55,089 nucleotides of DNA from a virus (IMGVR_UViG_3300009078_000004:1-55089); one strand, 5' to 3'. Shown: positions 11,844 to 19,352, counted from the first letter of the stretch. Notes: generated by a model from the sequence alone, not told the origin. Numbers and translations are program-made.

Positions 11844-13757
11844 ATGGTGAACCTCCCCGGCCTGCGTAAGAAGCCCACACCGGGCACCGATGTTGCTATT
11901 CCCGCGAACCCGCCCGTGCCGGTACTCAAACCCCGCAACCAGGTCGCTGCTGCGTCACGGATCCGGTTCGACGGCACCGGATGGAAGAACTACAAGTTCG
12001 GCTCCAACTTGTGGCAGGTCGAGGGCTGGCGGCATTACGACATCTGCGGCGAGCTGCATGGGGTCACGAACGCTGTAGCGAACCTCGGGTCGCGGGTCGA
12101 GTTCAACATCCACCGGATCGTGGATGGCAAGCCGGGCCCGCAGATCACCGCGGAAGACGATCCGCAGATCGCGGAACTAGACGCGCAGATCCTGGGTGGG
12201 CCGGAGAAGGCACCCGAGAACCAGCGTCTCGCGTTCGTGAACCTGTTCGTCGCGGGCGAGTACTTCCAGTTCGTTGAGTCGCCGAACAATGATGCGCTGG
12301 ACCGCTGGTTCATCATCTCCGTCACACAGCTGACGATGGCGCAGGACGGCAGCGGCAAGCTCCAGTTTGACCGGCCGCACGAGTACGGCGGTGGCAAGGT
12401 CGACTACGACCCGCGGCCCGGCTCGACCCGCTCGGGAATCCTGGAGAGGTGCTGGACACCGCACGGGCAGATGTCCGACCACGCCGACAGCTCCGTCCGG
12501 TCTGCTATCACGGTCCTGAACCTGATCGAGCAGTACAACAAGCGGTCGTCGGCGCAGAACGACTCCCGGCTAGCCGGCGCGGGCGTGCTGCTGCTGCCGG
12601 ACACGTTCGACTTCCCCGCCGGCGACGACCAGAGCCCCGTTGACGCGTTTGAGGCGCGTGTCGGGACCGAGATGGGCCGCACCCTCGAAGACCCCGCGAA
12701 CGCCCGCTCACTGGTGCCGGTGATGGCGACCGTCCGCGGCGACGACATCGACAAGGTGAAGTGGCTGACGTTTGAGACGCCACTCGACGAGCAGACGAAA
12801 GACCGCCTCGACCAGTGCATCCGCCGACTGGCGACATCCCTGGACGTGCCGCCGTCGGTGCTGCTCGGCGGGGAGTCGTCGTCGCACTGGACGGCGTGGA
12901 AGGACGCAGAAGACACCGTCACCACGTTCGTAGCCCCGCTCGCCGCCCGGGTCGCCGAGTGCATTACCGGCGGGTGGCTGCACCCCATCTTGGAAGAGAT
13001 GGGCTACGACCCCACCGAGTACATGGTGTGGTACGACCTCGCGCCGCTGCTCGTCAAACCCGACCGGCACAACGACGCGATGGCACTGTGGGACCGGGGC
13101 CTGATCAACGACGAGGCGGCACGGCGGCTGTCCGGGGTGAAGGAAGACGACGCCCACGACGAGGCCTCGTATAAGGCGTGGATGCTCGCACAGCTGATCC
13201 TGAAGGGGTCGCCGCTCCTACAGGACCCCAACTTCGCCGGGACGCTCGGCATCGCACCGCCGCCCGCACCCGCAGCCATCGAAGCCACCGAACAGCCCCC
13301 CGAGCGCACCGAACCGCCACGCTCACCCGAACAGGAAGCACTCGTCGCCGGCGCGGAGATGGCAGCACTCCACTCCCTCGCCGTCGCCGGTAAGAAGATG
13401 CTCACCCGCGGCGTACGCGACCAGCTGATGACCGAGTTCGCCGGACGCCCGTTCGACCTGCACACCCGGTTGAGTGTCGACTCGATGGAACACGCAACCA
13501 CCCTCCTCGACGGGACGTGGGATCTTCTGCCAGCCCTGGCGAGCCGTACGGGCACCGATCAGCAGATCCTGCGCGACGTCCTCGGGTTCTACTGCTCGTC
13601 GAAGATGTCATCGGGCATGGCCCACGACCCGGACACGCTCACGTTCCTACTGTCCGAAGGGATCCTCGCCGCGGGGCACCGAAGGTGTACCGGCGAACGG
13701 TGCAGTAACCCGCTGAACCCGCAGCCGTGCAAGCCGGCACAGCCGGTGACGGCATGA
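11844..13757 (+). CDS. Portal protein
   Basis: WQVEGWRHYDICGEL, SRLAGAGVLLLP, IRRLATSLDVPP..LLG..SHWTAW; position after terL. Confidence 0.88.
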   Translation: MVNLPGLRKKPTPGTDVAIPANPPVPVLKPRNQVAAASRIRFDGTGWKNYKFGSNLWQVEGWRHYDICGELHGVTNAVANLGSRVEFNIHRIVDGKPGPQITAEDDPQIAELDAQILGGPEKAPENQRLAFVNLFVAGEYFQFVESPNNDALDRWFIISVTQLTMAQDGSGKLQFDRPHEYGGGKVDYDPRPGSTRSGILERCWTPHGQMSDHADSSVRSAITVLNLIEQYNKRSSAQNDSRLAGAGVLLLPDTFDFPAGDDQSPVDAFEARVGTEMGRTLEDPANARSLVPVMATVRGDDIDKVKWLTFETPLDEQTKDRLDQCIRRLATSLDVPPSVLLGGESSSHWTAWKDAEDTVTTFVAPLAARVAECITGGWLHPILEEMGYDPTEYMVWYDLAPLLVKPDRHNDAMALWDRGLINDEAARRLSGVKEDDAHDEASYKAWMLAQLILKGSPLLQDPNFAGTLGIAPPPAPAAIEATEQPPERTEPPRSPEQEALVAGAEMAALHSLAVAGKKMLTRGVRDQLMTEFAGRPFDLHTRLSVDSMEHATTLLDGTWDLLPALASRTGTDQQILRDVLGFYCSSKMSSGMAHDPDTLTFLLSEGILAAGHRRCTGERCSNPLNPQPCKPAQPVTA

Positions 13758-14572
13758 CCCAGCCCATCGAACCCCCACCGCTGCCGCCGGAGGACTGGAC
13801 AGCGGAAGAGGCCAGCGCTGCGGCCCTGTACCTGACGCTGGTCGCCGCGTGGTTGACGGCGGTCACCGCCGCGACGTTCCCCGCCGCAGGGATCATCAAC
13901 CCGTTCGGGATCTTGTCCGCCACGTCGCTGTGGACGCAGACGGTAACGAACTGGATCCGGCAGGCCGTACGCCCTGCGTTGCTCGCCCCGTACACGTTCC
14001 TGTTCGGCCCGGAACGTGCCACAGTGCTGTTCGATCAGCGCCCGTTCGTCGACGAGTACATCCGCACCGTCACGAACCTGCTGTCGCGTGTGCCCGACGA
14101 GACATTCCGCAGGGTTCAGGCGATCGTGCAGACGGCTTCGACGGAGGGTACGTCGATCCCCGACACCGCCGAGCAGATCAGGGAGACGCTCCTGGACGCT
14201 GGCGCGCCGTACTGGACGAACCGGGCCGAGACGATCGCCCGGACAGAGCTGCTACGCGCGCACAGGGGCGGGGCGTGGGACTCGTACGTCACGTACGGGG
14301 CGGAGAACGGTTTGCGGATGCGTAAGACGTGGATCGACTCCGACGATGCGCGGGTCAGGCCGGCGCACGTTGACACCGACGAGCAGACAGTTCCGATCAT
14401 GGAACCGTTCATGGTCGGCGTTGACGGCGGACCGCGGTTCCCTGCCATGTACCCCGGCGATCCGATCCTCCCCCCGAACCTGAGCATCAACTGCCGCTGC
14501 GACGTCCTGTACACGACCTACGACGAGCCGTTGACTGACCTGTCCGACCGGCGTTTCCGGAGCGCGCTATGA
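13754..14572 (+). CDS. MuF/SPP1 gp7-like minor head protein
   Basis: RAETIARTE, KTW...DARVRPAH, YPGDP, INCRC. Confidence 0.9.
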   Translation: MTQPIEPPPLPPEDWTAEEASAAALYLTLVAAWLTAVTAATFPAAGIINPFGILSATSLWTQTVTNWIRQAVRPALLAPYTFLFGPERATVLFDQRPFVDEYIRTVTNLLSRVPDETFRRVQAIVQTASTEGTSIPDTAEQIRETLLDAGAPYWTNRAETIARTELLRAHRGGAWDSYVTYGAENGLRMRKTWIDSDDARVRPAHVDTDEQTVPIMEPFMVGVDGGPRFPAMYPGDPILPPNLSINCRCDVLYTTYDEPLTDLSDRRFRSAL

Positions 14573-17925: not shown

Positions 17926-19352
17926 CGAACATGACGAGTGCGCTCGACAACCCGGACGACCTGGAGTTCCGTGTAGAGGAAGCAGCCGACGACGCGGAGG
18001 GGCAGACTGCGGCGACGTCGCTGACCGCGTGCGGGTGCGCTACCCGCGCCGGCGTGTCCGAGTTCAGCGTCGCCACCGACGGGACGACGTGTGCGTGTGA
18101 CCCGGATGGGGTGGCTAAGCCGATGGCAGCCGGGGGCGAGTTCTGCGCGTGCGCATCTAGCCAGACTGCTGCGGTGCGGGACGACTTCGACGACATGCCG
18201 TTCGCGTCCCGGGACCGTGAGTGGGATGTCGCTGAGGCTGAGGCTGCGATCTCCCGGTGGGCTACCGACGATGACGGCGACATCGACTTCGGCCGGTACG
18301 GGCGGGCGTTTATCTACCAAGATCCAGACGGGCCGGTTGACGTCAAGTCGTCGTACAAATTCCCCGTGGCTACGGTGATCGGCGGCGAGCTGACGATCGT
18401 TCCCCGCGCTGTGTCTGCTGCTGCTGGTCGACTGAACCAGGCGAACGTGTCGTCGGATGCGCGTGAGCAGATCCGGGGCACGCTGACGGACCTGTATGAC
18501 CAGATGGCGGAGGAGTTCGACGACGATACGATCCAGGCACCGTGGGAGATGTCCGTGGAGACGGACAACGATGTCGACGAGGACGACAACTTCGACACCC
18601 CCGACGACGATGCGATCGGCGACGAGGTCCACGGGGGTGAGTTCTGCGGCACGTGCGGCGGCGACCCACTCGACCAGGTAGCCGCGGCCTACGGCGTATT
18701 CGGGGACATCCCCCCGCACCCGATCGAACTGTTCCAGCGGACCGCTACCGGGCCGACCCCGATGACGATCCTGGAAGACGGCTCGGTGTTCGGGCATATC
18801 GCGCCATGGGACTCGTGCAACCGCGGGGTGCGCGGGCGGTGCCTGCCGCCGCCGAAGTCGAAGACGAACTATGCCCAGTTCCACACCGTCCCCATCCGCA
18901 CGTCGGAAGGCACCCTGCGTGTCGGGAAGATCGTCATGGGTGAAGGCCACGCCGACGCACAAGGCAACATCCAGGTCACCCGCGCGTTCTACGACCGGGC
19001 CGGCTCAACCGTTGCGCAGGGCAGGGCGCACGAGGACGAGTGGGGTGTGTTCTTCTCCGGTGTCATCGGTCCTGGTGTCACCGCGGAGCAGGCGGTCGAG
19101 TTCTTCTCGATGCCGCCGTCTGGGCACTGGTCGGAGCACCGGCCTACCCGGTCGTCGGAGTTGATCGCTGTCGCTGCGGTGAACGTGCAGGGGCATCCGA
19201 CGCCGGGTCCTGATCTGGTGCTGAACCAGGTCGCCTCCGGCTACTACGAGCCGGAGGCGGACGCCGTGGACGATGCTGCGGCGGTGTTCGCGATCCTCGA
19301 CCAGGCCGACTGGGCCGACGAGGCCGCTAAGCTGTCGTTCAACCTGCTGTAG
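17922..19352 (+). CDS. Second head-maturation protein (protease-like domain)
   Basis: DREWD..YKFP..VPRAV domain; GSVFGHIA.W..C, GHA, SGHW, ELIAV.AVN motifs of cluster-B-type maturation proteases. Confidence 0.7.
   Translation: MTNMTSALDNPDDLEFRVEEAADDAEGQTAATSLTACGCATRAGVSEFSVATDGTTCACDPDGVAKPMAAGGEFCACASSQTAAVRDDFDDMPFASRDREWDVAEAEAAISRWATDDDGDIDFGRYGRAFIYQDPDGPVDVKSSYKFPVATVIGGELTIVPRAVSAAAGRLNQANVSSDAREQIRGTLTDLYDQMAEEFDDDTIQAPWEMSVETDNDVDEDDNFDTPDDDAIGDEVHGGEFCGTCGGDPLDQVAAAYGVFGDIPPHPIELFQRTATGPTPMTILEDGSVFGHIAPWDSCNRGVRGRCLPPPKSKTNYAQFHTVPIRTSEGTLRVGKIVMGEGHADAQGNIQVTRAFYDRAGSTVAQGRAHEDEWGVFFSGVIGPGVTAEQAVEFFSMPPSGHWSEHRPTRSSELIAVAAVNVQGHPTPGPDLVLNQVASGYYEPEADAVDDAAAVFAILDQADWADEAAKLSFNLL

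Follow-up and report, generated by a model that had tools for sequence, protein, structure and literature searches.

Short His- and Cys-rich peptides precede cargo modules among phage head genes and may act as a shared cargo signal

Phage heads contain proteins that are injected with the DNA, or before it, to disarm the host. To our knowledge, how such head cargo is chosen and loaded is largely unknown outside T4. The question is raised by IMGVR_UViG_3300009078_000004, a complete 55,089-bp IMG/VR virus record with direct terminal repeats and about 66% G+C (the window, by which we mean this whole stretch of DNA), in which two short peptides, one His-rich (HLxGxHDQxxHG) and one Cys-rich (CxxPLHPGPC and variants), recur within the head genes. 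The region concerned is the head-internal cargo module of a high-GC siphophage, in the order portal, MuF, 1118-amino-acid (aa) polyvalent protein (hereafter the polyprotein) and 476-aa assembly protein. Why should the same peptides, which we call tags, stand in front of one module after another? We find them as prefixes of diverse modules in many other phages, and hold it to be evenly balanced whether they are a common signal by which varied enzyme cargo is coupled to the inside of the procapsid, probably with proteolytic release.

The first-pass annotation had proposed that the tags, together with QTA[SA] linkers, form a modular address code for loading cargo into the head. When the translated genes and all six frames of the window were scanned by regex, every element of this grammar was located where it had been placed:

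13701-13730, plus strand: degenerate Cys tag CSNPLNPQPC, preceded by H-RR-C-TGER and lying 8 residues ahead of the portal stop
14584-14622, plus strand: His tag 1, FHLPGKHDQSSHG, polyprotein aa 6-18, 5 residues past the start codon; a member of the HLxGxHDQxxHG family
15202-15213, plus strand: QTAS linker motif in the context SSG-QTAS-LTAF, 3 residues ahead of His tag 2
15223-15261, plus strand: His tag 2, FHLTGQHDQSTHG, polyprotein aa 219-231
15907-16203, plus strand: QTAA motif and module D3 (aa 447-545)
16717-16752, plus strand: Cys tag 1, (RHG)EFCLNPLHPGPC, aa 717-728; behind it, aa 729-852 comprise a Gly-rich linker and a charged helical stretch
17125-17136, plus strand: QTAS linker motif, 12 residues ahead of Cys tag 2
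from 17167, plus strand: Cys tag 2, EFCRAPLHPGPC; its extended form, at 17146-17214, reads H-ED-C-ALNEF-C-RA-PLHPGPC-KGWK

All four polyprotein tags follow a Phe, as had been noted, and GGEFC does occur twice in the 476-aa gene, at 18132 and 18633. Further copies of QTA[SA] lie in the 476-aa gene (18003 and 18162) and in MuF (14129), while the patterns HL..HDQ and C..PL.P.PC have no further copy in the six frames of the window. To speak of "both protease genes", as the annotation did, was an overstatement: the 1118-aa gene encodes mainly multi-domain cargo with one protease-like domain, and the C-terminal domain of the 476-aa protein is a putative protease by virtue of its PHROG name.

Outside this phage, the His motif is widespread and its conservation reaches beyond the residues that define it. 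A degenerate DNA pattern for H-L-x-G-x-H-D-Q-x-x-H-G was found in at least 120 stretches of IMG/VR, with up to 11 copies per locus among the matches listed; the 120 listed loci hold 196 motifs in 165 open frames. At flanking positions outside the search pattern, the 182 unique contexts have Lys at -1 in 149 cases and Phe, the window's form, in 9, a Val, Leu or Ile at -3 in 111, and Trp at +13 in 99 (Trp-Ala after the final His-Gly), so that the consensus reads (V/L/I)-x-K-HL-x-G-(Q/K)-HDQ-x-(S/T)-HG-x-W-A. Phe takes the place of Lys in this phage and in most of the genuine-looking motifs of actinobacterial genomes. When the same DNA pattern was run on cellular genomes as a control, Lys preceded the motif in 1 of 89 contexts and MuF accompanied it in 5 of the 120 listed loci (L230-L349). 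By eye about a dozen of these cellular matches appear genuine (e.g. L236, L258, L263, L312, L314-L318, L344 and L345), most of the listed remainder being out-of-frame chance matches in GC-rich DNA. L236, from Streptosporangium longisporum JCM 3106, has two tagged ORFs, and in L258, from a Micromonospora strain, the tag comes after MuF. Thus, DNA-pattern scans for motifs rich in His, Gly and Asp need a check of the flanks.

A profile built from 149 tag windows matched 1452 of 1,835,955,588 representative proteins (clusters) at E<=0.001 and 336 at E<=1e-10, with E down to 5e-111 among multi-copy proteins; the best match is a 3023-aa protein with ten copies. Among the best 150 of the 1452 proteins, 134 contain the motif, loosely defined, and 113 contain two or more. 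In those 134 the spacing between motifs has a median of 250 aa, the length of one domain (interquartile range 188-335), and the first motif lies within 40 aa of the N-terminus in 59, while the last lies within 40 aa of the C-terminus in none. The His motif is a prefix, not a spacer. Accordingly placed are the motifs of 81 of the 165 open frames, in which the first copy lies no more than 110 aa from the upstream stop: these are free-standing genes that start with the tag, many of which share a leader of the type M-x-V-I-K-F-x-P-G-L-K-P-x-L-K-HL.

What follows the tag is what polyvalent proteins usually contain. The annotation had suggested a motif search across actinophage head genes to list the cargo behind the tags. 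In the phages at large that were searched here, ADP-ribosyltransferase (ART), zeta-kinase, GNAT, NUDIX and metallopeptidase modules are found there, and in homologues the domain boundaries coincide with the motifs. A Pfam scan covering 150 of the 175 segments behind a motif (all but the 25 longest) returned Zeta_toxin 10 times, ADPrib_exo_Tox 9, AAA_33 8, DUF3626 7, SprT-like 3, DRAT 2, ATLF 2 and ART-PolyVal once; peptidases of the SprT or lethal-factor type thus account for 5. In five large proteins NUDIX, GNAT, ART and DUF3626 domains fall between the motif positions. A MuF domain was recovered by local iterative search in 61 of the 120 listed loci, many of which are incomplete at their ends, and in 12 of the 17 open reading frames (ORFs) with both MuF and tag the tag begins 16-53 aa past the MuF domain. 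A prefix common to ARTs, zeta-type kinases, acetyltransferases, NUDIX hydrolases and metallopeptidases would provide a sequence handle for candidate injected effectors in metagenomes, including numerous uncharacterized modules. The tblastn searches turned up no cultured phage with the His tag: against named phages, neither a doubly tagged ORF (L023) nor the 30-residue N-terminus of the polyprotein gave a match, and P0007 matched through its enzyme domains only. A homology search limited to residues 1-45 left 2 of 4 candidates, and one of the 2 was the window's own protein.

Two arrangements of the His tag deserve mention in their own right. In L019, a 2064-aa open frame on the minus strand contains four consecutive modules with a T-H-N-H-P motif, which we take to be typical of RadC/JAB-like domains, each behind KHLPGQHDQ..HG; here the MuF domain lies C-terminal of the tags, the reverse of the usual order. 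In L187 and L076, C-G-C is followed by FHLQGLHDQKDHG and then by an inserted helical module, between the protease domain and the C-terminal domain, so that the His tag also occurs within the assembly backbone.

The Cys motif has a narrower range. The pattern C-x-x-P-L-H-P-G-P-C was found in 106 IMG/VR stretches, all of 59-72% G+C, with the window's portal type in 77 of these loci and MuF in 89; the motif is confined to high-GC phages, most of which have the portal type of the window. The 103 unique contexts share A-H-x2-C-x5-(F/A)-C-(R/L)-N-PLHPGPC-KGWK, an extended consensus with five possible metal ligands into which the extended Cys tag 2 fits. Both tag 2 and the consensus contain H-x2-C-x5-C-x4-H-x3-C, that is, four or more Cys/His ligands in a short span as in a zinc knuckle or ribbon; Cys tag 1 is without the first Cys of this ligand pattern. 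No Pfam model scored above cut-off in the Cys-motif region of any of 10 sequences.

As to position, 100 of the 121 Cys motifs have a MuF or portal domain upstream of them on the same strand: 7 lie at portal C-termini, mostly with cargo fused behind (an ART in L211), 2 share an ORF with MuF and come after it, 54 begin the next gene, which encodes a long protein, no more than 1000 nt downstream of MuF, and 37 lie further downstream. The other 21 have no anchor in the stretch. Portal homologues carry a canonical CxxPLHPGPC at the C-terminal position where the window has its degenerate copy, and in most of them domains follow in frame (L187, L209, L211, L212, L133 and L142). A looser C-x-C element occurs 25-40 residues past the protease domain in six relatives, directly followed by the His tag in two, and the N-terminus of the window's 476-aa protein is rich in such C-x-C pieces.

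When copies from one locus are compared, the codons of the invariant residues have the same third base at a rate of only 0.51-0.63, and Ser codons switch class. Since synonymous sites differ freely, selection acts on the peptide and not on the DNA. The prefix position at anchor/enzyme junctions is the pattern that would be expected of a modular cargo signal, and to this extent the idea is partly supported. Of the proposed address code, what stands is a set of conserved, portable module prefixes at anchor/enzyme junctions and at free-standing N-termini, the enzymes being of types whose packaging and injection are known. For MuF-linked proteins at large the tags are dispensable.

How might such a signal operate? 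Each module is prefixed by one of two short, exposed, metal-ligand-rich peptides and then by a flexible linker, and the signal would act either where cargo joins a head anchor (portal or MuF) or, in free-standing cargo proteins, at the N-terminus. In this phage an embedded protease domain of the HK97 type could then cut at the linker [GS]QTA[SA], leaving each fragment with a tag near its new N-terminus. Metal binding, docking, cleavage and the identity of a receptor are all putative attributes of the tags, suggested by their sequence and placement.

The protease that this scheme calls for may be the following module:

16204-16704, plus strand: D4, aa 546-712, predicted to adopt an HK97-type prohead protease fold with conserved His and Ser

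In an alignment of D4 with 28 homologues (A3, 29 sequences), the Ser of GPSVDL (S113) is invariant and the His of G-H (H63) nearly so; from their positions, H63 and S113 may be the catalytic pair. The AlphaFold model of D4 has a pLDDT (predicted local distance difference test) of 85.8 and 135 matches at E<=0.001 in BFVD, which contains predicted viral structures only; many of these are named prohead protease, HK97 family or COG3740, at a TMq of about 0.5-0.58. Hence a His/Ser domain with a predicted HK97-type prohead-protease fold resides in the same polyprotein as the tags.

QTA[SA], the core of the candidate cleavage signal [GS]QTA[SA], had been noted to recur at domain boundaries. Bare QTA occurs 5 times against 0.5 expected, but the freedom to choose the pattern makes this unexceptional: 426 of 2000 shuffles, and 17 of the relatives' 48 long ORFs, contain some tripeptide that is at least as extreme. 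All five copies read [GS]QTA[SA], however, and are confined to inter-domain linkers. With a pattern-search statistic that covers all tripeptides plus flanks, five copies of [GS]QTA[SA] score 6.69, which none of 3000 shuffles (maximum 6.07) and none of the relatives' 48 ORFs (maximum 5.81) reaches, and four copies of [GN]EFC score 8.99, a value attained by no shuffle. The boundary claim therefore holds for the flanked form in this phage, but neither for bare QTA nor for the relatives, where no enrichment is seen. It is plausible that [GS]QTA[SA] is a phage-specific linker signal, and most simply it would be a cleavage site for the embedded HK97-type protease domain. Of the 5 QTA[SA] copies in the relatives, 4 are found some 7-18 residues ahead of a Cys motif or one of its variants, as is the copy at 17125.

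Several results weigh against the tags being a cargo signal with proteolytic release. On the side of release, PF04586 (Peptidase S78) matches none of the 29 D4 members at E<=1, the D4 model has no PDB match in Foldseek at E<=0.001, and similarity between predicted structures is the sole basis of the protease call. Moreover, QTA[SA] is seen 5 times in relatives against 9.6 expected, and is absent from the major capsid protein, where a head protease would be expected to cut. On the side of loading, neither long motif occurs in MuF of SPP1 or Mu, in the MuF-ART fusion of the Microbacterium phage FireCastle or in the fused MuF of phage PIS 136, and thus MuF-based head association does not require tags. 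A polyprotein that is loaded as a unit by way of a single anchor would need no targeting tag ahead of each of its internal modules, and processing fits the internal copies better. That the portal itself bears a Cys motif is awkward if the tag binds the portal. Prediction of a complex between MuF (alignment A6) and the second tag window (A5) gave a score of 0.00 in two runs, with the tag region at a pLDDT under 50, and counts neither for nor against docking.

A bolder form of the cargo-signal proposal is that HLxGxHDQxxHG is a portable, metal-dependent tag for head loading and release in well over a thousand phage lineages, its cargo being taken in beside the portal-MuF assembly and later injected, and that the PLHPGPC knuckle is a second tag of independent origin. 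We put this forward tentatively, as something that may well prove wrong. Were the tags a portable loading signal, the repertoire of injected effectors in uncultured phages could be listed by motif search alone, and chosen proteins could be loaded into heads.

It is conceivable, if unlikely, that the tags are processing sites only, where the polyprotein would be cut into its modules or cargo freed from portal or MuF; they would be recognized by the prohead protease domain or, in other phages, by a zincin-like metallopeptidase, and play no part in targeting. This would explain why a tag stands ahead of every internal module and never at a C-terminus, and a protease-fold domain is indeed present within the same polyprotein. 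HExxH is 2.7 times commoner in tag-bearing frames (0.434 per 1000 aa) than in the remaining frames of these loci (0.159 per 1000 aa), and the main text of Iyer et al. (2017; PMC5512222) proposes that polyvalent proteins are processed by metallopeptidases. However, the HExxH enrichment is not universal (29 of the 120 listed loci and 63 of the best 150 proteins have the motif), and the window genes considered here contain no HExxH at all. Furthermore, 12 to 15 conserved positions far exceed the usual length of a protease site, and a cut would free almost nothing in the 59 of 134 proteins whose first tag is so close to the N-terminus, or in the window's polyprotein, where it follows 5 residues. 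The tag is also common to phages with possibly unrelated proteases, a D4-type domain being present in 6 of the 120 listed His-motif loci.

Perhaps the tags are instead small metal-binding hinges with a structural role after assembly, keeping unfolded cargo compact or bound to DNA, or priming it for passage through portal and tail at injection. The regular ligand patterns H-x4-HD-x3-H and H-x2-C-x5-C-x4-H-x3-C would suit this, as would the Gly/Ser/Ala/Pro-rich linkers that flank the tags, the prediction that the tag region on its own has no stable fold, and the recurrence of C-x-C behind the protease domain in the six relatives mentioned above. Metal binding is itself putative, however, and the extreme N-terminus of single-module proteins is an unexpected place for a pure hinge. 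We consider this scenario doubtful.

It seems quite improbable that the tags are recombination junctions by which cargo cassettes are swapped onto MuF or portal genes, in the manner of the pre-toxin motifs of polymorphic toxins. MuF genes do adjoin arrays of tagged cassettes, up to 11 among the matches listed, module order does vary between relatives, and MuF toxins are a described polymorphic toxin family in the main text of PMC5576092. However, the low synonymous identity between copies of one locus means that there is no long identical DNA for recombination, the peptide is conserved from low-GC marine-like contigs to 72% G+C, and many tagged genes have their own start codon and conserved leader.

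Chance or low complexity in a GC-rich genome, which does account for most cellular-genome matches and under which five bare QTA copies are unexceptional, is refuted for the two long motifs, since they recur elsewhere with conserved flanks, in all 103 unique Cys contexts and in the 1452 profile matches.

The genes and modules that make up the cargo region, beyond those given above, are as follows:

11844-13757, plus strand: portal gene, 637 aa (phrog_776 portal, E 1.4e-100)
13727-14572, plus strand: MuF-like minor head protein gene, 281 aa (PF04233 Phage_Mu_F, E 4.4e-12; phrog_2468 head morphogenesis)
14569-17925, plus strand: polyvalent (multi-domain) head cargo protein, 1118 aa, a single open frame
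14626-15201, plus strand: D1, aa 20-211, possibly ART-like (BLASTP and weak Atlas leads)
15262-15906, plus strand: D2, aa 232-446, no family match
17422-17874, plus strand: ART module, VIP2/Alt-like, aa 952-1102 (PF03496, E 3.5e-19; phrog_3895, phrog_802)
17922-19352, plus strand: 476-aa protein (phrog_859, phrog_21470, phrog_29860, phrog_18402)

The MuF gene shares 31 nt with the portal gene and an ATGA overlap with the polyprotein gene. D1, tag included, has 26% identity over 240 aa in BLASTP to a tagged module of L023, and Atlas points weakly to clusters named ART-PolyVal and exotoxin A catalytic (scores 0.87-0.89). D2 had no Atlas match, no Pfam match below cut-off and no homologue in the fetched loci. 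D3 matches phrog_6439 at aa 455-521 and is present in 21 ORFs of the fetched loci, and polyprotein aa 444-708 align with the middle of proteins annotated as "capsid maturation protease and MuF-like fusion". Aa 853-882 comprise QTAS and Cys tag 2, from where a Pro/Ala/Lys/Ser linker leads to the ART. Neither D1 to D4 as single segments nor parts of the 476-aa protein gave a Pfam family above cut-off. The N-terminus of the 476-aa protein is Cys-rich, with CGC, CAC, two QTAA and the two GGEFC, and is followed by a middle domain and a C-terminal domain. In tblastn the 476-aa protein reaches 855 phage records. Its C-terminal domain is common to "capsid maturation protease" annotations and has an AlphaFold model with a pLDDT of 73.8; it has no PDB match in Foldseek at E<=0.001, and PDB sequence searches with it and with D4 returned chance-level rows only. 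Portal homologues in 84 fetched loci have 31-38% identity, and homologues overall 25-45%; megablast of the region against named phages gave no match, and the IMG/VR search via the portal found no close relative.

Is any of this accounted for by known systems? T4 internal proteins bear a short N-terminal capsid targeting sequence that is linked to the head protease (gp21 cleavage). They are diverse and share only this sequence, and foreign carriers are encapsidated in the same manner, as the main text of PMC3012670 describes. It sets a precedent for the signal proposed here. Like it, the tags are short, common to otherwise diverse proteins and often near the N-terminus; unlike the tags, it is not known to be repeated in polyproteins or to be rich in His and Cys, and there is no likeness in sequence. 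The tag system is tied to MuF and portal, whereas the T4 signal is tied to a T4-type scaffolding core. In encapsulin cargo-loading peptides and in the pre-toxin motifs of polymorphic toxins, too, a short conserved peptide directs cargo or marks the start of a variable part; encapsulin peptides are usually C-terminal and not rich in metal ligands, and pre-toxin motifs act in secretion systems.

Closer parallels are found among head-gene effectors. Polyvalent proteins, according to the main text of Iyer et al. (2017; PMC5512222), unite many effector domains (ART, metallopeptidase, NUDIX, GNAT, kinases) in one polypeptide, are encoded beside portal, MuF and terminase genes, are often fused to MuF or portal, and are predicted to be packaged, injected and processed by an embedded peptidase. 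The polyprotein of the window agrees with this description, with two to fifteen distinct domains being typical and at least six segments present here (D1, D2, D3, D4, the helical stretch and the PF03496 ART), in a multi-domain effector chain amid the head genes: terminase, portal and MuF precede it, and the MuF stop overlaps its start. It differs in that a fixed prefix peptide punctuates the modules and also heads free-standing genes. The main text of PMC5512222, as distinct from its supplementary alignments, makes no mention of a junction motif of the HDQ or PLHPGPC type.

The MuF polymorphic toxins of temperate phages combine MuF with variable domains, either toxins or enzymes, ARTs among them, again in the main text (Jamet et al., 2017; PMC5576092), where the words motif, cleav and linker do not occur. 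Whereas MuF is N-terminal in the toxin polypeptide in that family, the window has separate frames for MuF (13727-14572) and the ART protein (14569-17925); in other loci MuF is fused with tagged cargo. A word search of Zhang 2012 found no mention of the tag motifs. The "capsid maturation protease and MuF-like fusion protein" of actinobacteriophages appears in SEA-PHAGES annotations and in the main text of a Microbacterium phage survey (PMC7302621). The middle and end parts of these fusions have their homologues in D3, D4 and the 476-aa protein's C-terminal domain, so the window looks like a split backbone with inserted tagged modules; it differs from them in having the backbone in three genes and four extra modules, each behind a tag, while PIS 136 and FireCastle are tagless. 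Polyvalent proteins, MuF or portal fusions with effectors and actinophage MuF-ART fusions are thus already on record in the main texts of PMC5512222, PMC9503650 and PMC7302621. New here are the punctuating tags, and that observation is solid: no Pfam or NCBIfam model covers either long motif, and the motif strings do not occur in the text proper of the open-access papers and preprints searched (supplements lay outside this search). The tag would be a concrete peptide for the study of docking, cleavage and metal binding, and possibly a tool for loading phage particles.

Some further observations concern the parts of the cargo region and its neighbours. The portal/MuF overlap (13727-13757) is in different frames, while several relatives have the portal in frame with cargo behind the Cys motif. 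D3 also occurs in L134 (10759-10956) and L159 (8095-8292), a few kb from the head module, upstream of the portal gene and in opposite orientation, with 55% identity to the window copy. Paralogy of D4 and the C-terminal domain of the 476-aa protein was considered and is unsupported (BLASTP E 0.24). Directly 3' of the 476-aa gene, a small ORF (19366-19557) encodes MGKDCGCGGG, a Gly/Ser/Ala linker and a tail of about 40 residues; its DCGCG is the same C-x-C element as in the post-protease linkers of relatives. Two further head genes are placed as follows:

8118-10916: large terminase
22325-23959: major capsid protein (phrog_777)

Read by eye, the 932-aa terminase ORF (8118-10916) contains an apparent intein with a homing-endonuclease core between the terminase halves, with the putative blocks LGAWLGDGD and LLHGLMDTDGY and the end THNT. 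Within the otherwise rightward head block, the 476-aa gene is separated from the gene for the major capsid protein by three leftward ORFs of 212, 177 and 215 aa (19590-21269, minus strand), none of which has a PHROG match. The first 120 or so residues (22325-22700) of the 544-aa major capsid protein are rich in Ala and Glu and helix-like, and may represent a built-in scaffold.

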